Shown in pieces: positions 2,877 through 42,300 of a DNA stretch of 43,019 nt. The stretch is from a virus: UHGV virus genome UHGV-0172637; one strand, written 5' to 3'. The notes beneath the pieces were generated by a model that saw only the letters and a list, made by a program, of their open reading frames with translations, made no database searches and was not told the DNA's origin. Positions within the stretch are counted from its first letter, which is position 1. Each line of letters begins with the position of its first letter. The translations under genes and the position numbers were made by a program.

Positions 2877-4115
2877 TTACTTTTTCATCACCTTTTCAGC
2901 AACACCAGCAATTGCCTCAAGTCCATCAAACATTGCTGGTATATTATTTTCATTGTTTTGTATTGGACTAAAAATAAGAGCATCAAAAGAGTCTAAAACT
3001 TTCTCAATAGCAATGTTATTTTTTCTTCTATATTCAACATACCCATCAATGAAAGCACATAAGCTGAGCCTTAGATCAATCTGCATAAGTTGAGTTCTTA
3101 AAGCCTTCGCTTCTAAATATGAAAGTCTGAAAAAATAAATAATTGCCATCTCAATAGTAATAAATGGGAATAGAATGAAGATCGCTGAATAATCTTTAGG
3201 ATATAAATCAGGGAAAGAAAAATGGATTATTACAGCAATCACAGGAGCAATGAATACAGTCCCAAATAAATTTTTATAATTCATTTCAGTTGTAGAAAGC
3301 TCTTTCTCTTTTTTTTCTTTTATTATGTTAAAACCAGAGCTTAACCCAACAAAATTATACTCTGATTTTAAATTTCTCACACGCTCCTCTAGTGCCTTAA
3401 TTTCATCCCTTGATTCATCCACGTATTTTAAATTAGCATCTGCTTCTAGTTTTCCATCTACAATAGCTTTTTTAATGTCATTATAATTATCAGATATTAA
3501 TGATATGGATGCTTTAGTGTCTTTGTTAATTTTATCAATAGCCAAATCTAAGTTGCTAGAAATTTCATCGAGAAACTTCCGTTTGTTTTCGTCGAGGTCT
3601 GATATAAAGTTTCTAGCATCAGTTAGTTTGTTACTGTTTAGTAACCACTTCATAAGTGAAATAGGTAGTTTGTCTCGAATCCATGAAAATTGGTATTTAC
3701 CTTCATTATCCTTGAAAGTGTTTTCTAATAATGTCAATTTGCTGTCTGTGATAAAGTTAGGCGTGATAATGGAACGAGTGCCTGTCCAATAATAGTACTC
3801 GTACAATACTCTTAACAAGGTTGACAAAAAATCAATCTTGTCTTTCTTGTAATCGTCAACTTGAAATTCCATGTGCAACAATATATTGTCTTGATTAAAA
3901 CCTGTATTCTCATCTAAATGTTGTGGGTTGTTATTTATTATTGATATAAAAGTCGACCATGCTGAGTCCAATGTAGTATAGAATAAAGATATGCTATTAT
4001 CTTTCTTTTTGGCGGATTTCTTGGACATTTCTTCAAACCTAATAAGATCTCTACTAATTATAGTATTTGTTTCCTTTATTGAATTAAGTATTTTATTATC
4101 GCTATATAGTCCCAT
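2877..4115 (-). CDS. Hypothetical membrane-anchored protein (coiled-coil region, two C-terminal TM helices), AT-rich accessory gene
   Basis: 412 aa; Lys/Asn/Ile-rich, visibly AT-rich DNA; hydrophobic segments LFGTVFIAPVIAVIIHF and YSAIFILFPFITIEMAIIYFF; heptad-like segment DESRDEIKALEERVRNLKSE. Confidence 0.6.
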   Translation of the reverse strand: MGLYSDNKILNSIKETNTIISRDLIRFEEMSKKSAKKKDNSISLFYTTLDSAWSTFISIINNNPQHLDENTGFNQDNILLHMEFQVDDYKKDKIDFLSTLLRVLYEYYYWTGTRSIITPNFITDSKLTLLENTFKDNEGKYQFSWIRDKLPISLMKWLLNSNKLTDARNFISDLDENKRKFLDEISSNLDLAIDKINKDTKASISLISDNYNDIKKAIVDGKLEADANLKYVDESRDEIKALEERVRNLKSEYNFVGLSSGFNIIKEKKEKELSTTEMNYKNLFGTVFIAPVIAVIIHFSFPDLYPKDYSAIFILFPFITIEMAIIYFFRLSYLEAKALRTQLMQIDLRLSLCAFIDGYVEYRRKNNIAIEKVLDSFDALIFSPIQNNENNIPAMFDGLEAIAGVAEKVMKK

Positions 4116-13730: not shown

Positions 13731-14147
13731 GTGCGTGATATGCAGAAAGTTTTAGATTTATGGGGGGCGTGGGCCGCGAGCGATTCATGCCATGTTGATT
13801 ACTCTCCGATTGCTGCGGGCTTCAAAGGGTTACTGCCGCAAACAAGTAAAACTCGGATTCAATGCACTGATGATGATGGGCTGGTAATAGAGGGGTGTAT
13901 GTCGCGCCTTAGCAGAAAGAGGCCATACGATTATCAACTATTGGTCGTGCACTATATCTACCGGGTGTCCAAGCGCCAAATGGCAAAGCACCGAAAGAAA
14001 AGTGAAAAGCAGATCCGAATCGAAATGCAACTGGCGGAAGGGTTTATTGAAGGGTGTCTGTCTATGCTGGATATCCCCCTTGAGATGGATCTGGTTGTAT
14101 ATGTGGAAAATCATCAAAAAAGCACTAGTGCGGTCCGCACTTTTTGA
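13731..14147 (+). CDS. Late-gene antiterminator Q
   Basis: 138 aa; N-terminal VLDLWGAWAA... and Cys cluster resemble lambdoid Q-family antiterminators; located just upstream of late region. Confidence 0.7.
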   Translation: MRDMQKVLDLWGAWAASDSCHVDYSPIAAGFKGLLPQTSKTRIQCTDDDGLVIEGCMSRLSRKRPYDYQLLVVHYIYRVSKRQMAKHRKKSEKQIRIEMQLAEGFIEGCLSMLDIPLEMDLVVYVENHQKSTSAVRTF

Positions 14148-14254
14148 TATAAGGTGTTAAGAGTGGTCACTAAGACACGGACTTAAAACGCTTTCTAACC
14201 TCGCTGCGGCGGGGTTTTCTGTTATGATAGCTTTCTTTCTATAGGTGAGTTGTC

Positions 14255-14917
14255 ATGGATATAATTCATTTACTGGAAGTGCTTAATCCTCTCGAAAACG
14301 TTGTAACTGTCAAAATCGACAACGACAAAAACTTGTTTACGATGTTTGGCGATTTATTAATTACATTAGCCCCTGCAGTGATAGCGGGTATTGCGATGGT
14401 GGTTTCTTATAAGCAATTCAAAACGAGCTTACACAGGCAAAGTGAGCAATTTGAACTGGGAATAAAGCAACAAATTAATACATTAAAAATTAATACACAA
14501 CTTGCTACTGAAGTTGAATTGATGAAAGAGGATTGCAAGGCATTAAGAGAAACTTATGTTAGCTATTTAGATGTCACTTCATTACTTTATAGAAGCCAAT
14601 GCGATTTTAAAAATTATAGTGGTCAATTTGATGATAATGCAATTAAGAGTCGCAATATAGCACATGAAAATATAATGACCTACAGTAGTAAGTTTTTGCA
14701 AACTAGAATTTTATTATTCTCTTATCTTAATCTTGAAATTCCCGAAGAGAAAAAACTACAAGAATGTATTATTGCTATTGGTGACTGTGCATTTAATGGA
14801 GACGGAACTGGGAAAGATATTGGAAAGTTACAAGGTGATGGTGCGACTCTCTGCTTTGAGTTAATAAAGAGGAAACGCCAGGCAATCTTCAGTTTGGTAG
14901 AAACCATTACCGAATAA
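14255..14917 (+). CDS. Hypothetical single-pass membrane protein, AT-rich accessory gene
   Basis: 220 aa; TM helix LLITLAPAVIAGIAMVVSY; visibly AT-rich; RBS TAGGTGAG; sits between Q and the lysis genes. Confidence 0.6.
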   Translation: MDIIHLLEVLNPLENVVTVKIDNDKNLFTMFGDLLITLAPAVIAGIAMVVSYKQFKTSLHRQSEQFELGIKQQINTLKINTQLATEVELMKEDCKALRETYVSYLDVTSLLYRSQCDFKNYSGQFDDNAIKSRNIAHENIMTYSSKFLQTRILLFSYLNLEIPEEKKLQECIIAIGDCAFNGDGTGKDIGKLQGDGATLCFELIKRKRQAIFSLVETITE

Positions 14918-15093
14918 ATACTGAAATTTCTTGCCTCTGTTGATAGAGGTATCCCGCTGTGAAAATGGGCGGCTGGTGGGTGTTAGCGCACCCGGCCAGC
15001 CATCAGCTCATGCTTTCAGGTCACAAGCTAACCAAGGCCCACTGCTTTAGCGCAAAAGCAACGTGAGCCTATCAGAGTTACGCTTACTAATCT

Positions 15094-17751: not shown

Positions 17752-18195
17752 ATGACTACACGGAATGATGTTATGTCAGAAGTTGCAGCGGAGCTAGCCG
17801 AGCAGACTTGGCCTGATTTTTATCCAAAAGGTGTTCCCCCAAAAACGGCTGTGGATGCCGAGGGTGAGTTTTATCGTTTGGTTAGAGCTAACCCCCCGAC
17901 TCCAAATTGTTTCCTTTCTACCCATGAAGAGTATCCGAATAGACATAAAAAATGTCGTGGAGAAGCTCTTCAGTGCGTATATGGCACATCTTTTTTTTCA
18001 GAAGAAAGAGGTGCTACAGATGCAAAGGCTAAGTTTCCAGCGGCGTTAGGTGATCGTACCGTCGCTAAAGGTAACGTAATGCCATTCATGGGGGTCATGA
18101 AAAAGACTTTTGCGGATCCTGCTCACTATACAATATGGCTTACGGTAAATTGTTCTATCCATGAGCATTTTGCTTGTTTAGGAGAAGGCGAATGA
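17752..18195 (+). CDS. Hypothetical protein A of two-gene cassette (Cys/His-rich, possible metal-binding)
   Basis: 147 aa; C68-x6-C75 and C134-x2-H-x-H-x2-C142 patterns; no recognisable enzymatic motif; stop overlaps start of next gene (ATGA). Confidence 0.55.
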   Translation: MTTRNDVMSEVAAELAEQTWPDFYPKGVPPKTAVDAEGEFYRLVRANPPTPNCFLSTHEEYPNRHKKCRGEALQCVYGTSFFSEERGATDAKAKFPAALGDRTVAKGNVMPFMGVMKKTFADPAHYTIWLTVNCSIHEHFACLGEGE

Positions 18196-19484
18196 GTAAC
18201 GTTTTTCTGCCTAATACAATGATGGGGACTCTGCGCTATAAAAGGGTGTATGAGTTTTTCGAAGAGCCTCGTTTCTTTTCAGCAGAGAATGAAGTTAGTT
18301 CATTATTTGTTGTTTATTGGATTGGTGAGGATGAGGACGCCGATAGCTGGTATGTTATCCCTGTATCGCCGACACGATTGGAGTTAATTGAAAGAAAAAG
18401 AATTGATTTGCGTTCAGTTTTAATTGATCAGGAACAGTCTTTTTTCTACGAAGTACGCGCTCCTTATGATCGGGAGGTTGCACCTACATGGAATGTTAAA
18501 GGCGTAGATGCCGTCTATGAAAATGCTTTACCAGCTCAGGGACTGTTTATTAGCTCTGTGGTTCCTGTTTTAGAAAATGGTCGAATCGGTGAAGCAATTA
18601 AGTATTCAACACATGAGATTCATTTAGAAAAAAGCTCAAAGAAAAGTGCTGGAAATTTGGTGCTAAGTCACGTTTCGAATGTGTGTGATAGCTTTAGTGC
18701 GTTATATGACAGTTTGCTGGAGTTTAGCGGTCTCAAAGACAAGCTACGTCCAGTTGATGCTCGTCCTGGTTCGTTCATCCTTTCATTCCAAGCTGAAAAG
18801 CTGAACGCCTATGAAGAGATTTTACGTGATTTGAGCGCTCTGATTGAGCGTCGTGCTGATATAGTCGATTTCATACAAAACAATGGGATAGATATCCAAG
18901 CCTTTTCTGATTTGCTTCAGTCTATTGTATCGACTGGAACAAATATGGAATTAAAAAGCAATCAGACTGGTGAGGTTATATTTCTGCTGACTAAAGCAGG
19001 AGCTGAGTTCTATCTTAGGGTAATCAGTAGGATGTCTGCACTTGCAGTTAGTGGTCATCAAATTCCGCAGGCAGATACTTTAGAAAAAGTTTTTAAAGTA
19101 GTTGAAGTCAAATGGAGTGGGGAGCCTTGTACTGTAGAGAATACAGGTTTGCAAGAAAGACACGTTTATTATTACCTACATGCTGCAAAGGTATTAGGGT
19201 TTCTGAATGCTAATGGCAATGTAACTGCGATGGGGCAAAAGTTAATTCAGTCTGGACAAGAGAACCAATATAAAATTGCTGCAAGATGCTTTGAGGTGAG
19301 CCATATTGGTTGGGCTTGGATTAACTGGTCAGAAGTTGAGAATTTATCTCAAATAGATCCAGATACAGCTGAGAAATTTTTACTTGAACAGTGCAATTCA
19401 TTAAGTAAAGACACTATAGCCAGAAGGTCGCGAACTCTTAGACATTGGGGCAAAGAGCTTAAGGAAAAATATACTCCGCTCTAA
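18192..19484 (+). CDS. Hypothetical protein B of two-gene cassette (430 aa)
   Basis: ATG 18192 preceded by GGAGAAGG RBS; visibly AT-rich; no P-loop or nuclease motif recognised. Confidence 0.6.
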   Translation: MSNVFLPNTMMGTLRYKRVYEFFEEPRFFSAENEVSSLFVVYWIGEDEDADSWYVIPVSPTRLELIERKRIDLRSVLIDQEQSFFYEVRAPYDREVAPTWNVKGVDAVYENALPAQGLFISSVVPVLENGRIGEAIKYSTHEIHLEKSSKKSAGNLVLSHVSNVCDSFSALYDSLLEFSGLKDKLRPVDARPGSFILSFQAEKLNAYEEILRDLSALIERRADIVDFIQNNGIDIQAFSDLLQSIVSTGTNMELKSNQTGEVIFLLTKAGAEFYLRVISRMSALAVSGHQIPQADTLEKVFKVVEVKWSGEPCTVENTGLQERHVYYYLHAAKVLGFLNANGNVTAMGQKLIQSGQENQYKIAARCFEVSHIGWAWINWSEVENLSQIDPDTAEKFLLEQCNSLSKDTIARRSRTLRHWGKELKEKYTPL

Positions 19485-32758: not shown

Positions 32759-33469
32759 ATGCGTCAGAAAATTATCGACGCCATTATGGCGCATGCTGCC
32801 GCTGAATATCCGCGGGAGAGCTGCGGTGTGGTGGTACAAAAAAGCAGGGTGCAGCGATACATACCCTGCCGCAATCTGGCAACCGATCCGACAGAGCATT
32901 TCCACCTGTCACCGGAGGATTACGCCGCTGCTGAAGACTGGGGTACGGTGATTGCCATTGTCCACAGTCACCCGGATGCCACGACGCAGCCAAGCGAACT
33001 GGATAAAGCGCAATGCGATGCAACGCTCTTACCCTGGCACATCGTGAGTTGGCCGGAGGGTGATCTGCGTACCATCCAGCCGCGGGGAGAGCTGCCGCTA
33101 CTGGAGCGCCCGTTTGTGCTCGGTCACTTCGATTGCTGGGGGCTGGTGATGAGTTACTTCAGGCAGACGCATGGTATTGAACTGAAGGATTACCGCGTCG
33201 ATTATCCCTGGTGGGAAGACAGTTACCCCGAAAACTTCTACCACGATTGCTGGTATGAATGCGGCTTCCGTGAATTCAGCGGCGCACCGCAGCCAGGTGA
33301 TATGGTTATCATGCAGGTCCAGTCCAACAAGTGGAACCATGCCGGTATCCTGTTAGAAGGTAACATGCTACTGCATCACCTTTACGGGCATCTTAGCCAG
33401 CGCGTTCCTTATGGTGGCTACTGGCAGGAACGAACAATGAAGGTTCTACGGCATGAGGCTCTGTGTTAA
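32759..33469 (+). CDS. K: Tail assembly protein K (JAB/MPN + NlpC/P60-like)
   Basis: HSHP JAB-type motif (IAIVHSHPDA) and Cys/His peptidase-like C-terminal half; lambda K position. Confidence 0.85.
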   Translation: MRQKIIDAIMAHAAAEYPRESCGVVVQKSRVQRYIPCRNLATDPTEHFHLSPEDYAAAEDWGTVIAIVHSHPDATTQPSELDKAQCDATLLPWHIVSWPEGDLRTIQPRGELPLLERPFVLGHFDCWGLVMSYFRQTHGIELKDYRVDYPWWEDSYPENFYHDCWYECGFREFSGAPQPGDMVIMQVQSNKWNHAGILLEGNMLLHHLYGHLSQRVPYGGYWQERTMKVLRHEALC

Positions 33470-33500
33470 CCTTTTACAATATCAAAAAGGGGATAGGGAC

Positions 33501-33836
33501 ATGAAAAGAGCCATATTATTTATTTCTTTATTGGGTTTATTTGGTTGTAGTGCATCTTCCTTGCAGGAAGAATCTCCAATTTATTCAGGGCATTCATTAA
33601 AGAGTGCTTCACAAATTAATAAGTGCTTATCGCCTAAATGGCAGGATCTACATCCACAGGCAACAAGTATAGAAACCGAAGCTGGTTATAGAATATCAGC
33701 ATCTGATGATTTATTTGGTGTTTTATCGATGGCTATAATAGAGGGGAACCCAAATGGTGGGGCTGATGTGAAAGTCTATGCCGCAAGTAAAGGTATTGGT
33801 GATCCATGGGGTAAAGCTGCGCGTTCCTGTATTTAA
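33501..33836 (+). CDS. Small lipoprotein, accessory gene inserted between tail genes K and I
   Basis: 111 aa; signal peptide with lipobox LFGC (MKRAILFISLLGLFGCSAS); visibly AT-rich; own terminator downstream. Confidence 0.65.
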   Translation: MKRAILFISLLGLFGCSASSLQEESPIYSGHSLKSASQINKCLSPKWQDLHPQATSIETEAGYRISASDDLFGVLSMAIIEGNPNGGADVKVYAASKGIGDPWGKAARSCI

Positions 33837-33854
33837 GTCGATTCTAATCTTCAA

Positions 33855-33877
33855 AGCCACTTTATGTGGCTTTTTTA
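33855..33877 (+). terminator. Rho-independent terminator after lipoprotein gene
   Basis: AGCCAC-TTTAT-GTGGCT stem-loop followed by TTTTTT. Confidence 0.7.
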
Positions 33878-33888
33878 TTGGAGTTAAC

Positions 33889-34491
33889 ATGCAAGAAGTA
33901 ATGACCAGGATTGAACTTGGTGGGGTTTTAGGTAAATCATTTGGCCGCTCTCATAACAGATTAATAAGAACAACGGCCGAAGCCATTAACGCTTTATCAA
34001 AAACAATAAATGGATTTGAACAGTATTTAAATACCAGCAAAATGCGAGGGCTTACGTATGCAGTATTTAAAGGTAAAAAAAATCTTGGGAAAGATGATTT
34101 AGGTTTTCCCGTTACAGGTGAAGTGATACGAATCGTTCCTATCGTGATTGGGAGTAAAAAAGCAGGTTTACTTCAAACAATCTTAGGGGGCGTACTGGTG
34201 GTAATTGGTGCGTTGGGGGCAACAATAGGCCAGGCATGGGGTGGTGCCGCATGGGGGCCAGCTGCAATGAAAATTGGTGCGGCAATGGCGCTTGGCGGTG
34301 TTATACAAATGCTCTCACCGCAACCATCCGGCATAGCCAGCAAGCAAAGTGCAGATAACCGGGCTTCGTATGCGTTCGGAGGCGTAACTAATACAGCTGC
34401 GCAGGGGTATCCAGTTCCTCTTTTATACGGTCAGCGACGTATTGGTGGCGCTATCATATCGGCAGGTATTTATGTTGAAGATCAGCAATAA
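33889..34491 (+). CDS. I: Tail assembly protein I
   Basis: Start at ATG 33889 after the terminator (track start 33778 runs through the hairpin); Gly/Ala-rich hydrophobic C-terminal half as in lambda gpI. Confidence 0.8.
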   Translation: MQEVMTRIELGGVLGKSFGRSHNRLIRTTAEAINALSKTINGFEQYLNTSKMRGLTYAVFKGKKNLGKDDLGFPVTGEVIRIVPIVIGSKKAGLLQTILGGVLVVIGALGATIGQAWGGAAWGPAAMKIGAAMALGGVIQMLSPQPSGIASKQSADNRASYAFGGVTNTAAQGYPVPLLYGQRRIGGAIISAGIYVEDQQ

Positions 34492-34545
34492 CCATGTTGT
34501 AATTACGCTATAGGTAATAAGCCTAATATCAAGGTGATAGGGTAT

Positions 34546-35262
34546 ATGAAGAAATTATATGTTTTGTTACTCAGTACAGTTTTGATTTCTGGGATGAGTC
34601 ACGCCGAAAATGGTTATATTCCTGTATTATATAATCTATCAACTATGTTCGATTTTAATCCTGTTAAAGGACCAGTGAAATCACTTAGTACTATAGTGGA
34701 GAGTAATGGCAAGGTTACTTATAAAGTATTATTAAAGCTAAATAAAAAAGGTTGTATTGAAAGCCTGAGCTTGGATAATATTTCAAATGGCTTTAAAACA
34801 GAACTTAATAATGATGGGGTAAATCTTGTAGGCAAGAGAGGTGAAAACCCGTACTTTGTTGGTCTAACGGAAGATTGTAATATTCTTTCTCAGAATGATA
34901 ATGGTGAGAAAAATACATTCTCTCTCACAGCAAGTGGAATGATTAAAGATACTTATTATTTAGGCCAAAAAATAGCAACGCATTTTTATGATGATAATGA
35001 TAATTTAATACGCTCTGAGTTTTATGGCTCAGATAAAATTTTGTCCAGTAATGAAGTTATTTATTTAGATAAAAATACTAAACCTCTTGACTACAAGATT
35101 ATAAACGAAAGTAGCTATGCACAAGGATATACTGCTACAACAACTTGTAAATACAACGCGAAACTTGTTCCAGAGTTATGTAATCTGATAATACAGAATG
35201 CAGGGAATCCGCTTCCTAAACCGACAGTAATTACAGCACATACAAGCGTGGAATTTTATTAA
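34546..35262 (+). CDS. Secreted hypothetical protein, AT-rich accessory gene between tail genes I and J
   Basis: 238 aa; Sec signal peptide MKKLYVLLLSTVLISGMSHA; Asn/Lys/Tyr-rich; ends in aromatic residue; own terminator. Confidence 0.65.
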   Translation: MKKLYVLLLSTVLISGMSHAENGYIPVLYNLSTMFDFNPVKGPVKSLSTIVESNGKVTYKVLLKLNKKGCIESLSLDNISNGFKTELNNDGVNLVGKRGENPYFVGLTEDCNILSQNDNGEKNTFSLTASGMIKDTYYLGQKIATHFYDDNDNLIRSEFYGSDKILSSNEVIYLDKNTKPLDYKIINESSYAQGYTATTTCKYNAKLVPELCNLIIQNAGNPLPKPTVITAHTSVEFY

Positions 35263-35281
35263 ATATCCACCTTCATATATA

Positions 35282-35304
35282 CCGCCTACGGGCGGTTTTT
35301 TTAT
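35282..35304 (+). terminator. Rho-independent terminator after secreted accessory gene
   Basis: CCGCC-TAC-GGGCGG stem-loop followed by TTTTTTT. Confidence 0.75.
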
Positions 35305-35313
35305 GGGCGCGAA

Positions 35314-38300
35314 ATGGCTAAAGCAACCCTTATCAAAGGCCGCAAGGGCGGCAGTTCCAGTTCCCGAACCCCAACCGAACAGCCAGATGATCTGCAATCT
35401 GTAGCGAAGGCTAAAATTCTCGTTGCGCTTGGTGAAGGGGAGTTTGCAGGGAAATTAACCGGAAAAAATATCTATCTGGACGGCACGGCGTTGGAAAACC
35501 CCGACGGCTCCCAAAACTTTAGCGGCGTGACGTGGGAGTTTCGCGCGGGAACGCAGGCACAAAATTACATTCAGGGCATTCCCGGTACCGAAAACGAAAT
35601 CAATGTTGGAACTGAAGTATCAAGCGCTACTGCCTGGACGCGCACCTTCACCAACACCCAACTATCAGCCGTTCGCCTGCGACTGAAATGGCCTTCACTG
35701 TTTAAGCAAGAGGACAACGGCGATCTGGTAGGGTATTCCATCAATTATGCGATAGACCTGCAGACTGATGGTGGGACCTGGCAAACCGTTCTTAATACCA
35801 GCGTAACCGGCAAAACGACGTCTGGTTATGAGCGCAGCCACCGTATTGATTTACCGCAGGCTGGCAGCACCTGGACAATCCGACTGCGTAAGATTACCGC
35901 TGACGCAAACAGCGCCAAGATCGGCGACACGATGACGCTGCAAAGCTTCACGGAAGTGATTGATGCCAAGCTGCGCTATCCGAACACCGCGCTGCTGTAC
36001 ATCGAATTCGACTCGAGTCAGTTTAATGGTTCAATACCCCAGATCTCCTGTGAGCCTCGCGGGCGCGTGATCCGTGTTCCTGATAATTACGACCCTGAAA
36101 CGAGGGCTTACAGCGGTACATGGCAGGGCGCGTTTAAGTGGGCCTGGACTGATAACCCGGCGTGGATATTTTACGATCTGGTGATTACCGATCGCTTTGG
36201 TCTGGGTAATCGCCTGACTGCAGCCAACATTGATAAATGGACGTTGTACCAGGTTGCCCAGTATTGCGATCAGCCGGTACCGGATGGAAAAGGTGGAAGC
36301 GGGACAGAACCACGCTATACCTGTAACGTCTATGTTCAGGAGAGGAATGACGCTTACACTGTGCTGCGTGACTTTGCGGCTATATTCCGGGGTATGACGT
36401 ACTGGGGCGGCGATCAGATTGTGGCCCTGGCTGACATGCCGAGAGATGTGGATTACGCTTACACTCGCGCTAACGTTATCGACGGACGCTTTACCTATTC
36501 CAGCAGTACAACAAAAACGCGCTATACAACAGCGCTGGTTTCCTGGTCTGATCCGGGTAACGCCTATGCGGATGCGATGGAGCCAGTGTTTGAGCAGCCT
36601 CTGGTGGCGCGGTACGGATTTAATCAGCTGGAAATGACAGCCATCGGCTGTACCAGGCAGTCAGAAGCTAACCGAAAGGGGCGCTGGGGCATTCTCACCA
36701 ACAACAAGGATCGCGTTGTTTCTTTTGATGTCGGGCTGGACGGAAACATTCCGCAGCCGGGCTACATCATCGCCGTGGCAGACGAGCTGCTTTCCGGAAA
36801 GGTTATGGGTGGCCGCATCAGCGCCGTTAACGGTCGCGTGATTAAACTTGACCGAGTGGCGGATGCAGTAGCAGGTGATCGCCTTATTCTCAACCTTCCC
36901 TCCGGTGCGTCACAGAGCAGGACCATTCAGGCCGTGAACGGGGAATCAGTCACAGTCACCACTGCGTACAGTGAGACGCCGCAGGCCGAAGCTGTTTGGG
37001 TGGTTGAATCGGACGAGCTTTACGCGCAGCAGTATCGTGTTGTCAGCGTCTCCGATAATAATGATGGTACTTTCTCTATTACCGGGGCATGGCACGATCC
37101 GGATAAATATGCCCGTATCGATACCGGAGCCATCATTGACCAGCGGCCAGTGAGTGTGATCCCGCCGGGTAACCAGTCGCCGCCAGCCAACATTGTGATC
37201 AGTTCATTTTCAGTGGTTCAGCAAAATATCAGCGTTGAGACTATGCGGGTGAGCTGGGACCAGGCGCAGAACTCCATCGCCTACGAGGCACAGTGGCGCC
37301 GCAATGATGGTAACTGGGTAAACGTGCCGCGCAGCTCCACCAACTCATTTGATGTATCGGGTATTTATGCAGGGCGCTACCTCGTGCGTGTGCGTGCCAT
37401 TAATGCCGCTGAAATATCCTCTGGCTGGGGCTACTCCGAAGAGAAAACGCTGACGGGTAAGGTGGGAAATCCGCCGAAACCTGTCGGCTTTGCGACAACA
37501 CCGATTAACTGGGGCATTCGTCTGAACTGGGGATTCCCGGCTAACACCGGGGATACACTGAAAACGGAAATTCAGTACACCGCGAACAGTGATTTCTCAA
37601 ATCCTCTTTTGCTGTCGGATGTGCCTTATCCTTCTGCTGAATACACTCAACTGGGATTAAAAGCGGGGCAGGAATTCTGGTACCGTGCGCAGCTGGTAGA
37701 CAGAACGGGTAATGAGTCAGGCTGGACTGACTGGGTTCGTGGTGAATCTAATGCGAATGCTGACGACTACCTGGGCGATATTGCTGATGACTTCCTGACT
37801 TCTGCCGACGGTAACCGCCTGACAAGCGATATTGATACCAACCTCGAAGCCGCATTGCAGAATGCGCTGGCAAACCATGCAACCGCGGAACACCAGTGGG
37901 CGCAGTACGGCGAAGTACGCGCGGATATTCTGGTAATTAAAACGACGGTCGCCAGTGTGGATAAGGCGATGGCTGAGCTGTCTACGCAGGTACAGGCACA
38001 GATTGAAGATGTGACAGCTTCACTCGAGGACAAACTGACCGCTACTGTCGATGCTTCGGGGGCTACAGCCATTCATACCCTGAAAGCCGGAGTGCGCATC
38101 AACGGTATTTTTTACAATGCCGGGATGTCGATTGCGGTGCTGGCCGAATCAGGTAAGCCGGTAGTAACCCGTGTCGGGTTTAACGCCAACCAGTTCGTCC
38201 TGATGAGTGGCAGCGGTGATACGCAGTATTCTCCTTTTGCTGTTATCAATGGTCAGGTATTTATTAGCGATGCGTTTATTCAGGATGGCAGCATTACCAA

Positions 38301-38517
38301 TGCCAAAATTGGTAATTTTATCCAGTCGAATAACTTCGTTGCGGGTTCAGCAGGCTGGCGCATTGATAAAGATGGAAACGCTGAATTACATGGCAAACTT
38401 TACGCTGACAGTGGCCAGTTTGCATTTAATGGCACCAATAACACTGTCGTCATCAACGGGAATGGGCTGACGGTCAATTTGTCCGGTGGTGGTAGGGTTG
38501 TAGTCGGGAGGTGGTGA
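35314..38517 (+). CDS. J: Central tail fiber / host specificity protein J
   Basis: 1067 aa; size, position after I and fibronectin-III-like central region consistent with lambda gpJ family. Confidence 0.85.
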   Translation: MAKATLIKGRKGGSSSSRTPTEQPDDLQSVAKAKILVALGEGEFAGKLTGKNIYLDGTALENPDGSQNFSGVTWEFRAGTQAQNYIQGIPGTENEINVGTEVSSATAWTRTFTNTQLSAVRLRLKWPSLFKQEDNGDLVGYSINYAIDLQTDGGTWQTVLNTSVTGKTTSGYERSHRIDLPQAGSTWTIRLRKITADANSAKIGDTMTLQSFTEVIDAKLRYPNTALLYIEFDSSQFNGSIPQISCEPRGRVIRVPDNYDPETRAYSGTWQGAFKWAWTDNPAWIFYDLVITDRFGLGNRLTAANIDKWTLYQVAQYCDQPVPDGKGGSGTEPRYTCNVYVQERNDAYTVLRDFAAIFRGMTYWGGDQIVALADMPRDVDYAYTRANVIDGRFTYSSSTTKTRYTTALVSWSDPGNAYADAMEPVFEQPLVARYGFNQLEMTAIGCTRQSEANRKGRWGILTNNKDRVVSFDVGLDGNIPQPGYIIAVADELLSGKVMGGRISAVNGRVIKLDRVADAVAGDRLILNLPSGASQSRTIQAVNGESVTVTTAYSETPQAEAVWVVESDELYAQQYRVVSVSDNNDGTFSITGAWHDPDKYARIDTGAIIDQRPVSVIPPGNQSPPANIVISSFSVVQQNISVETMRVSWDQAQNSIAYEAQWRRNDGNWVNVPRSSTNSFDVSGIYAGRYLVRVRAINAAEISSGWGYSEEKTLTGKVGNPPKPVGFATTPINWGIRLNWGFPANTGDTLKTEIQYTANSDFSNPLLLSDVPYPSAEYTQLGLKAGQEFWYRAQLVDRTGNESGWTDWVRGESNANADDYLGDIADDFLTSADGNRLTSDIDTNLEAALQNALANHATAEHQWAQYGEVRADILVIKTTVASVDKAMAELSTQVQAQIEDVTASLEDKLTATVDASGATAIHTLKAGVRINGIFYNAGMSIAVLAESGKPVVTRVGFNANQFVLMSGSGDTQYSPFAVINGQVFISDAFIQDGSITNAKIGNFIQSNNFVAGSAGWRIDKDGNAELHGKLYADSGQFAFNGTNNTVVINGNGLTVNLSGGGRVVVGRW

Positions 38518-40897: not shown

Positions 40898-41140
40898 TTA
40901 ATCTGAAACCAGCCACATATCAGCCTCTTCAAACATTTCCTGAACAGTACGGCTTATCTGTTCCTTCTCATGCTTGCTGGCGTCAGTGTTGATCGCCGGC
41001 AGTGTCATCATCGGTTTTACCCGGACATCAGCATCAGGGAAGACCCGGTGAACCCTCTTAGTCAATTCGCCCAGAATGATATCTTTTGCACCGGGCAGAC
41101 CATCAAAATTCCTTTTGCCATAAACGAGTTCTATGAACTT
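40898..41140 (-). pseudogene. dinI: DinI-family gene lacking a canonical start codon
   Basis: Minus-strand frame encodes KFIELVYGKRNFDGLPGAKDIILGELTKRVHRVFPDADVRVKPMMTLPAINTDASKHEKEQISRTVQEMFEEADMWLVSD, collinear with E. coli DinI as recalled; AAG (41138-41140) or ATA (41132-41134) occupies the expected ATG position; no SD. Confidence 0.6.
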
Positions 41141-41165
41141 ATAAGTGATGTGAGAATGGCAGAGT

Positions 41166-41894
41166 CTAATGTTTGTCCGATGATGTGAGTTGCTGCAAAC
41201 ATATATGTTCAGGATGCGGCCTGGATGCTATTTTTTTCCCTGAAGCGGAAAACATTACTACTGTACCTTTAACCCTGGTTTTAACATTCTCGAAATGCTC
41301 TGAAAGTATTTGTTTTAACCCTTCTTTGGAATCTTCGGTGTTTGAAAAGATGCCTTTCTGATTGTATATGCTCATCAGTTTTTTACCGAAGGTATTATGC
41401 ACAACGCCATCACCAACAATTGTGGCGCCATACAGAGTACCATCGTCAGTTAAGGCCTGCGCCGCATTGCGTATTACACAGGTTTTTGTCGATATATTTC
41501 CAGGCAGGCAGTGAAGAAGGTAAAACATTGAAATGGAATCAAATTGACCATGCAATGCTGCGGGATAAGGTTCAAAAACATCATGGCAAATTTTATGTTG
41601 AATTTTTGACTTTCCAGCCCTTGTTGATGCAGCGTTCAGGCTAGCTTCGTTCAAATCCATTAGAGATTTCAAACCACTTTCAGGTACGTGAGTAAGGTAA
41701 AACCCAGTTCCAACACCAATATCCAGATGGTTGTTACCTAAATGTTCCAGAAAGTGTGGAAGAAGGTATTCCTTTGTAGGGCATCCCCATGCAAGTCGAT
41801 TTGATACACCCAAAACCCACCAGTCATAAAGTTTTAGTGTGAATGGTGTGTAAACTTTAGCCCCATCATCTGTGTTTTTTTTCATTAATTTCAC
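41166..41894 (-). CDS. Class I SAM-dependent methyltransferase (small-molecule/protein type, not an obvious DNA MTase)
   Basis: Motif I LDIGVGTGFY; 242 aa; AT-rich 5' half. Confidence 0.6.
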   Translation of the reverse strand: MKLMKKNTDDGAKVYTPFTLKLYDWWVLGVSNRLAWGCPTKEYLLPHFLEHLGNNHLDIGVGTGFYLTHVPESGLKSLMDLNEASLNAASTRAGKSKIQHKICHDVFEPYPAALHGQFDSISMFYLLHCLPGNISTKTCVIRNAAQALTDDGTLYGATIVGDGVVHNTFGKKLMSIYNQKGIFSNTEDSKEGLKQILSEHFENVKTRVKGTVVMFSASGKKIASRPHPEHICLQQLTSSDKH

Positions 41895-41985
41895 CGTGTT
41901 ATAGTTTTGGTCATGAATTAAATCAATAATGGCGATGAATTACAAGGGGTTAAATGATGCCACGACGTAGCGATATTGAAATGGC

Positions 41986-42300
41986 TTGGCATGCTTCGAC
42001 ATGCGGGCATCGCGTTCACATTTCGGGGAAGGGATACTCCAGGGTGCGCTGCTTGTGGTAGATGCATCACTTTCTGCCTGCGATGGCTCACTGCTGATAT
42101 GTGCAATCGACGGGGAGTTCAGGATCAAACGATATCGAACACATCCTCAACCCCACCTGATTAATCTGGAGAGCGGGAGAAGGGAGGTGCTACCAGTAGA
42201 TGATGACGGTTACGGTTCTGCACCCGCTATATTCGGGGTGATTACTTACATCATTAATGATGCCAGGAACGCGGAGTTTGATGATTGTCCGGTGATGTAA
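41986..42300 (+). CDS. UmuD-prime-like S24 peptidase-fold protein lacking the N-terminal arm
   Basis: 104 aa; aligns to UmuD C-terminal domain (LLVVDASLSACDGSLLICAIDGEFRIKRY...IFGVITYII); upstream frame does not encode a UmuD N-terminus. Confidence 0.55.
   Translation: MACFDMRASRSHFGEGILQGALLVVDASLSACDGSLLICAIDGEFRIKRYRTHPQPHLINLESGRREVLPVDDDGYGSAPAIFGVITYIINDARNAEFDDCPVM

Follow-up and report, generated by a model that had tools for sequence, protein, structure and literature searches.

A gene of the UPF0257/YnfC family lies as an accessory cassette between the tail genes I and J of the UHGV virus genome UHGV-0172637, whose 43,019 nucleotides were analysed here as one stretch of DNA that we call the window. 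The gene codes for a pre-protein of 238 residues, and its product is predicted to be soluble in the periplasm. We put at about 0.75 the probability that the cassette is accessory and that its YnfC-family product is soluble in the periplasm, serves the host and is no part of the virion. The cassette belongs to a known kind of system, the lambdoid tail-operon morons that encode an exported envelope protein. The gene and its surroundings are as follows.

33886..34491, plus strand: tail assembly gene I, the left flank (Pfam Lambda_tail_I; phrog_32 at 6e-72)
34492..35270, plus strand: inserted cassette of ~780 bp, boundaries +/-7 bp (alignment to empty junctions, I-J gap, guanine-plus-cytosine (GC) content)
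34533..34537, plus strand: Shine-Dalgarno sequence GGTGA, 8 nt 5' of the ATG, read from the sequence
34546..35262, plus strand: coding sequence of the 238-residue pre-protein, UPF0257/YnfC family, non-lipidated branch (Pfam match, homologues, selection, AlphaFold model)
34546..34605, plus strand: predicted signal peptide, residues 1-20, MKKLYVLLLSTVLISGMSHA (hydropathy and charge pattern, alignment, low model confidence)
35314..38517, plus strand: tip attachment and host-specificity gene J, the right flank (Pfam FNIII-A_GpJ, Phage-tail_3, Phage_Tail_Tip)

A preliminary description of this DNA had reported here an open frame of 238 codons for a protein rich in Asn, Lys and Tyr, encoded by AT-rich DNA and lying between I and J, and all of this was confirmed. 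The Pfam and PHROG identities of the flanks establish the position, and the frame runs from the ATG at 34546 to 35262 on the plus strand. A mechanical list of open reading frames puts the start at a GTG at 34534. We judged the ATG at 34546 to be the real start because GGTGA lies 8 nt upstream of it, because the homologues align from MKK, MNK or MRK, and because the Kluyvera copy has an in-frame TAA immediately 5' of the ATG. The sequence AAGGTGA is kept in the window and in the Kluyvera, L005 and L063 lineages. Calculated from base composition, the chance of a 238-codon open frame in DNA of 32% GC is ~7e-9. Asn, Lys and Tyr make up 10.1, 8.8 and 6.3% of the protein, against 6.5, 3.3 and 3.7% of J. 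The GC content of the gene is 31.9% (23.9% at third codon positions) compared with 53-55% for the tail genes K, L and J, and the low GC relative to the neighbours holds in all lineages of the gene. The window is a lambdoid Citrobacter prophage, and the genome that matches it best is that of a prophage in Citrobacter braakii ATCC 51113, where the protein is 100% identical.

The protein is a member of UPF0257, which the preliminary description had missed. It matches the Pfam profile PF06788 over its full length (residues 1-238 on profile positions 1-236 of 236) with 80.3 bits for a cut-off of 25. With the NCBIfam model NF002798, the equivalog of the YnfC lipoprotein, it scored 81.1 bits, under the cut-off of 263, and the protein is outside this equivalog. 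UPF0257 is a small family, with 56 representatives at 50% clustering among 1.84 billion proteins. Four Cys (C70, C111, C201 and C212) do not vary among 25 sequences. They stand at the same positions in the lipoprotein branch of the family, and they probably form two disulfides. The motifs YNLSTxFDFNPVKG, HFYD and PLDY vary little or not at all. Canonical YnfC resembles the window protein in its length, its four Cys, the FDF-P-x-G motif of the N-terminal helix, its YD-like hairpins, its C-terminal aromatic pair and its predicted fold of a 16-strand barrel with a helix. The two are nevertheless only ~24-27% identical, and canonical ynfC is chromosomal, lies beside speG and encodes a lipid-anchored protein, whereas the window gene is phage-borne, AT-rich and without the lipobox Cys. 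The last two residues, [FY][YF], are near-invariant in the soluble branch as well as in the lipoprotein one (window 35251-35259, ...VEFY), and this aromatic pair recalls the C-terminal signal of outer-membrane proteins.

An AlphaFold2 model built from the 25 sequences reached a predicted local distance difference test score (pLDDT) of 89.3 and a predicted template modelling (TM) score of 0.82. It contains a helix at residues 26-35 and 16 beta-strands, and residues 1-20 alone were of low confidence (pLDDT <50). The protein is therefore predicted by the model to have an N-terminal helix surrounded by a 16-strand beta-barrel. This agrees with a published description of the PF06788 model, in which 16 strands form the barrel, the helix is N-terminal and the family is noted as an outlier of the Tubby-like Pfam clan (PMC12095923). 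The structure most similar to our model is 4ghb, that of a soluble protein, and outer-membrane barrels and Rhs/teneurin YD shells come lower among the structural neighbours. The structure 4ghb is BACUNI_01323, which together with BVU_2266 (3tzg) forms a pair of "porin-like" soluble Bacteroides proteins. They are 7-12% identical to the window protein, have no known function and are neither phage-borne nor enterobacterial. A Foldseek search of viral structures gave low-scoring MORN-repeat matches alone (TM score <= 0.36), a generic likeness of beta-hairpins that is uninformative, and a sequence search of the PDB gave no meaningful match (best E 0.13).

The claim of a Sec signal peptide was borne out. 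The product starts with MKKLYVLLLSTVLISGMSHA followed by ENG, with a basic n-region (K2K3), a hydrophobic core of 13 residues (residues 4-16, where the 11-residue Kyte-Doolittle mean reaches 2.65) and, before E-N, the c-region S-H-A. There is no second hydrophobic segment in the protein, the highest 19-residue mean being 0.51. Sequence rules predict that signal peptidase I would cut after A20, and the mature product would be a soluble periplasmic protein of 218 residues. UPF0257 divides in two in this respect. A distant branch has lipoboxes (L-x-[GAS]-C; LLTGC, LLAGC etc.), whereas the branch of the window protein has AxA sites and carries M, I or T at the position of the acylated Cys (ISG-M, VSG-M, FSG-I; pattern L-x-S-G-[MIT]). 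We looked for the lipobox L-x-[GAS]-C in the window protein and found instead L-I-S-G-M, then SHA and EN. The AxA site is kept in the aligned relatives, among which the lipobox Cys is missing except in the distant P0016 and P0034. The "ISGM" sequence looks like a relic lipobox in which Met has replaced the acylated Cys. As the lipobox Cys is absent, the protein is predicted to be soluble and not lipid-anchored. Four relatives (P0013, P0014, P0023 and P0024) are publicly named "YnfC family lipoprotein" despite having no lipobox Cys. For this reason the label is misleading for these close relatives, and the name was probably carried over from the family.

We then compared the I-J junction in 80 viral contigs whose J N-terminus is >=93% identical to that of the window. 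The junction is empty, with a gap of ~52-55 bp, in 65 of the 80 loci. Six loci carry the YnfC-like gene in a junction of 822-823 bp, eight carry other AT-rich cargo, and one (L116) was unscorable since no I match was found. The cassette bounds given above come from alignment with two empty junctions, those of the E. coli W619 prophage and of Enterobacter phage MStein-2023a. The other cargos are of four kinds, with a GC content of 0.39-0.43, and were found in close relatives just upstream of position 2501. The inserts measure ~317 bp in L095, L125, L135 and L145, 689 bp in L134 and L137, 879 bp in L080 and 501 bp in L118. Their open reading frames are of 88-95 residues (MKKYLRLTISGL...), of 190 residues and, on the reverse strand, of 210 and 71 residues, with no match in Pfam or PADLOC. 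Upstream of the junction the gene order of the window is H, M, L, K, a gene for a 111-residue lipoprotein, and I. The YnfC-like gene and this K-I lipoprotein gene occur together in 2 loci, the lipoprotein gene alone in 14 and the YnfC-like gene alone in 4, and the two assort independently. Precise presence or absence among similar phages, together with a deviating base composition, makes the gene a moron in the sense of Juhala and Hendrix.

The family reaches beyond these close relatives. Forty viral contigs of IMG/VR match the family profile, and in at least 32 of them the order I, YnfC-like gene, J is kept with fixed spacing, although I is only ~60% and the YnfC-like gene 56-66% identical to those of the window. 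The homologue P0012 (L063), at 46% identity, sits in the same I-J slot with the same junction features. The cassette is thus an old shared one with slot fidelity. The preliminary description had seen in it a second independent insertion of the tail cluster. The empty sites, the other cargos and the independent assortment uphold its status as an add-on, but it is not a one-off event. Among 50,697 deposited phage genomes no gene was better than 27% identical to the YnfC-like gene, and the gene was absent from 5,426 complete E. coli genomes and from plasmids; BLAST searches of these phages, E. coli genomes and plasmids matched the flanking I/J sequence or canonical ynfC alone.

The gene is under purifying selection. 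The frame is intact in every one of 48 distinct alleles, and the pairwise ratio of nonsynonymous to synonymous divergence (dN/dS) is 0.08-0.16 across all divergence bins. Moreover, intact copies persist as orphans where the prophage has decayed. In the Kluyvera loci 47 codons of I remain upstream and scraps of J downstream, and the gene, its upstream motif and the downstream hairpin are intact, while the Enterobacter loci keep an I fragment of 22-74 codons. In a neighbour-joining tree, the orphans nest inside phage-borne clades and the lipoprotein branch is basal. The nesting therefore gives the direction of transfer as phage to chromosome. For one pair of orphans (L007 and L014), dS is 0.56 and dN/dS 0.16. 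The orphans occupy different chromosomal contexts; one context shared by all would have pointed to vertical inheritance after a single decay event, and the case for remnants is made instead from the nesting and from the flanking fragments of I and J. The hosts include plant and environmental Enterobacterales. The persistence of intact and constrained orphans after prophage decay favours a function at the level of the host and independent of the phage; this survival under constraint also argues against a role in tail assembly. A unit of 1.46 kb is 97.5% identical between Duffyella gerundensis (L009 614-2073) and Rouxiella aceris (L016 5803-7257), which belong to different families. It consists of the YnfC-like gene with ~200 bp upstream and ~540 bp downstream, the latter containing an 82-residue open reading frame, and its flanks are unrelated. 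This match indicates a recent horizontal transfer of a small cassette, so that the cassette also moves on its own.

Expression of the gene would involve three elements at the junction.

34475..34480, plus strand: -35-like hexamer TTGAAG in the last codons of I (GTT GAA G..), with T34476 as the diagnostic synonymous base
34495..34503, plus strand: extended -10-like element TGtTGTAAT, 17 nt 3' of the -35-like hexamer, invariant across lineages
35281..35303, plus strand: terminator-like hairpin ACCGCC-tacg-GGCGGT followed by a run of seven T, native to the I-J junction

Aligned from the 3' end of I as far as the start codon, 10 clade representatives share GTTGA, a variable spacer of 17 nt, TG-n-TGTAAT and little else. 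GTTGAA is also invariant in the Duffyella and Rahnella chromosomal copies, in which the I frame is lost. The Val codon at this place is GTT in 40 and GTC in none of the occupied sites, and GTC in 65 and GTT in none of the empty sites. Within the last 120 nt of I, no position other than T34476 separates the two classes perfectly, and the occupied lineages differ from one another at 24-29 other positions, including synonymous sites between T34476 and the cassette. A long hitch-hiking haplotype was therefore rejected as the sole cause of the GTT signature. We also considered a riboswitch or another leader structure as the cause of the upstream motif and rejected it, since the leader RNA showed no significant structure (z 0.2-0.3) and Rfam gave no match over 33300-35500. 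From this pattern of bases, the motif is likely a hybrid sigma-70 promoter with its -35 element taken from gene I and its -10 element from the cassette, and transcription would start near 34510.

The hairpin stands differently. The 50-nt segment around it folds at -16.1 kcal/mol (z -2.3). The preliminary description had given the gene its own terminator, and the hairpin with its run of seven T does exist, but it does not belong to the gene. The empty junctions of the E. coli W619 prophage and of MStein-2023a read I stop, ~15 nt, the hairpin GGCCACC-tcag-GGTGGC, a run of seven T, ATGGGCGCAAT and the J start. Because the same hairpin, T-run and ribosome-binding region of J are found there, the hairpin pre-exists at the I-J junction, and the cassette uses a terminator that it did not bring. 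The stem has one compensatory pair between lineages (CCGCC/GGCGG and CCACC/GGTGG). Even without cargo, this hairpin and its T-run stand directly before the ribosome-binding region of J within the late operon (window 35281-35313; L062 2990-3028; L061 2985-3022). Its role there could be attenuation, RNA stability or the insulation of J from upstream cargo promoters.

On these grounds we propose the following course of events. The gene would derive from the outer-envelope lipoprotein family YnfC (UPF0257), through a branch in which the lipobox Cys was replaced (ISG-M). During lytic growth it would be transcribed passively with the late tail operon, which is expected because there is no terminator between I and the YnfC-like gene. 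In the lysogen, transcription would most likely come from the putative hybrid promoter, and the transcripts would stop at the pre-existing I-J hairpin. The pre-protein would be exported by Sec and cut after SHA at residue 20, and the result would be a freely diffusing version of a normally lipid-tethered protein. This product would work for the bacterial cell and not for the virion, and our guess is that it binds a periplasmic component of the envelope and thereby protects the envelope of the lysogen. We infer a role in the host envelope or in phage exclusion. As the leading specific version, and by analogy with HK97 gp15, the protein may interfere with a periplasmic step of genome delivery by incoming siphophages, a possibility that we hold tentatively. 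A wider proposal, rather unlikely in our opinion, is that the de-lipidated YnfC branch is an unrecognised, phage-spread family of periplasmic protection proteins, with a promoter formed at the I stop codon, whose members, as soluble copies of a host envelope lipoprotein, block a periplasmic step of siphophage genome delivery or antagonise the host YnfC pathway and have been repeatedly domesticated by bacteria as orphan genes once the prophage had decayed.

The nearest precedent is HK97 gp15, encoded by a moron in the tail operon. It descends from the YebO family of the host, is expressed from the prophage, acts in superinfection exclusion and has host homologues outside prophages (PMC3594210). 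Like gp15, the window gene is an extra gene in a lambdoid tail operon, deviates in base composition and has diverged from an enterobacterial envelope family. HK97 gp15 is, however, a small inner-membrane protein whose gene lies between the tail chaperone and tape-measure genes, whereas the window protein is a predicted soluble periplasmic barrel of 218 residues encoded between I and J, and the two have no sequence relationship. For accessory genes of lambdoid prophages more broadly, sodCI and other such genes of Gifsy-2 are strongly expressed in the lysogen, in which the Gifsy-2 lytic genes are silent (PMC7067206). SodCI, lambda Bor and Lom are Sec-exported products of such genes, as the window protein is predicted to be. 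The substrate of the enzyme SodCI is known, Bor is a lipoprotein and Lom an outer-membrane barrel, and the window protein has no homology to any of the three and no virulence link. The genes sodCI, bor and lom lie in or beside late or structural regions.

Several points weigh against this proposal. No function of YnfC or UPF0257 is described in the literature, in which we found screen tables and one note on the fold, and the binding of an envelope component is, as said, a guess. PADLOC-DB gave 0 families at E <= 0.01, and PHROGs has no family for the protein. Known exclusion proteins are usually membrane-anchored, and the window protein has lost its anchor. The variants of the YnfC-like protein track the adjacent I and the N-terminus of J (Spearman rho 0.63-0.73) but hardly the C-terminal 250 residues of J (rho 0.24), and pairs with a >=95% identical YnfC-like protein have J C-termini that are 30-100% identical. 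This weak tracking of the receptor-binding end of J argues against receptor-specific exclusion. As for the promoter, the -10-like hexamer has G at the usually invariant A(-11), and a consensus scan called no promoter; it missed the -10-like element because of this G. A mini-ORF (a very short open reading frame) of the form ATG/GTG-YTG-TAA is another possible reading of the motif. Finally, the GTT association may partly reflect tight linkage, the base being 15 nt from the cassette.

Other explanations of the gene were weighed against the same evidence. Envelope proteins that mask a phage receptor are well known: llp lies beside the receptor-binding gene of T5, and cor beside tail-fibre genes. 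By the same logic, the window protein would bind the periplasmic face of the receptor of J, block superinfection and spare the progeny from adsorbing to debris. The gene is indeed immediately upstream of the receptor-binding gene J, and the predicted export would bring its product into the compartment in which receptor-masking proteins operate. Cor (summarised in PMC3594210) and T5 Llp likewise belong to the envelope, have receptor-binding or tail-fibre genes as the neighbours of their own genes and act from the periplasmic side, but they are small lipoproteins specific for FhuA. The window protein is four times their size, carries no lipid anchor and shows no sequence relationship to them. 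Nor does it vary together with the receptor-binding end of J, since near-identical proteins are paired with J ends that are only 30% identical. With the orphans persisting in genomes without a phage, and no PHROG or PADLOC match, we regard receptor masking as improbable, and the receptor interference considered in the preliminary description is weakened accordingly. An integral outer-membrane beta-barrel, Lom/Ail-like or porin-like and involved in serum resistance or adhesion, would fit the earlier suggestion of an outer-membrane protein and has little chance of being right. Of the 16 strands, seven extend over just 6-7 residues, compared with ~9 or more for membrane-spanning strands, and the mature protein is 20% charged (21 K/R, 24 D/E). 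With its four invariant Cys and relatives that are lipid-anchored and not inserted, these properties point to a soluble barrel rather than a porin. The best structural match is soluble, and no Pfam family of outer-membrane proteins was matched. An outer-membrane location is therefore unlikely, and nothing in the analysis points specifically to serum resistance or adhesion.

The position of the gene within the tail operon invites two more explanations. It could be a helper of lytic growth only, acting in the periplasm during virion release (lysis timing, envelope breakdown) and having no role in the lysogen. The common orientation with the tail operon, the missing terminator after I, the strong Shine-Dalgarno sequence and the non-canonical -10 of the candidate promoter all agree with this. 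Most close relatives, however, do without the gene, the orphans are intact and under purifying selection where no late operon or phage remains, and the TTGA/TGnTGTAAT block is kept even where gene I is gone, which makes a late-only role quite improbable. It could also be a tail-assembly or virion component of this phage group, given its place within the tail cluster and its fixed I-J position in many phages. Phage tails assemble in the cytoplasm, whereas this protein has a predicted cleavable export signal; it is absent from 73 of the 79 scorable close relatives with near-identical J, and it survives alone in decayed prophages. Homology to tail proteins was looked for in Pfam and PHROGs and none was found, so that the moron claim of the preliminary description stands, and the tail-component explanation is effectively refuted already. 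The remaining one, neutral or selfish passenger DNA without a function for phage or host, draws on the behaviour of the cassette as a small mobile unit, as in the 1.46-kb match of Duffyella and Rouxiella, and on the YnfC family having no described function. We give it very little chance, since dN/dS is low across the 48 alleles with the frame always intact, the Cys and the motifs are invariant, and the cassette encodes no mobility gene of its own. A host-serving periplasmic protein encoded by an accessory cassette is thus the reading that we retain.

Further features of the window and its relatives were seen around the cassette. The K-I slot holds, at 33501-33836 on the plus strand, the 111-residue lipoprotein gene (MKRAILFISLLGLFGC, then SASS; phrog_914, GC 0.39), which has its own terminator-like hairpin at 33853-33873. 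This slot is more variable than the I-J slot: among the relatives its gap is 8 or 47 bp when empty and reaches 1463 bp at the most. In a prophage with the YnfC-like gene (L005 5898-7253), the K-I slot carries a minus-strand HxlR-type regulator and a protein of the metallo-beta-lactamase fold; the latter has a faint match to the Anti-Pycsar protein Apyc1 and is possibly anti-defence cargo. Gene I of the window is mosaic (33750-34200), its N-terminal half having a GC content of 0.38-0.40 and its C-terminal part being GC-rich, and at L023 5338-5943 the identity of I is only 66%, against 96-97% for K, J and the YnfC-like gene. In the C. braakii ATCC 51113 reference (L012 6769-8835), the J frame is of 2064 nt and fibre-like sequence follows directly, compared with a J frame of 3201 nt in the window. 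J of the reference prophage is therefore shortened or rearranged relative to that of the window. Other AT-rich islands of the window lie at 2877-4115 (minus strand), 14001-15000, 18001-19000 and 41001-42000. The strongest one is a 412-residue minus-strand open reading frame of 31% GC near the left end, which adjoins a probable integrase-sized open reading frame and is likely cargo.

Tail-operon morons are known as a means by which prophages alter their hosts, and these results add to them a family hitherto undescribed as phage cargo. They link the uncharacterised enterobacterial YnfC lipoprotein family to phage biology and make it experimentally approachable. If the promoter is read correctly, the junction would show how a cassette turns the final codons of a structural gene into part of a promoter and reuses an existing hairpin as its terminator. 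The intact orphans in decayed prophages are a clear case of repeated moron domestication. Finally, the proposal that the de-lipidated branch is a family of periplasmic protection proteins would, if true, offer a first way into the function of the orphan YnfC/UPF0257 family.

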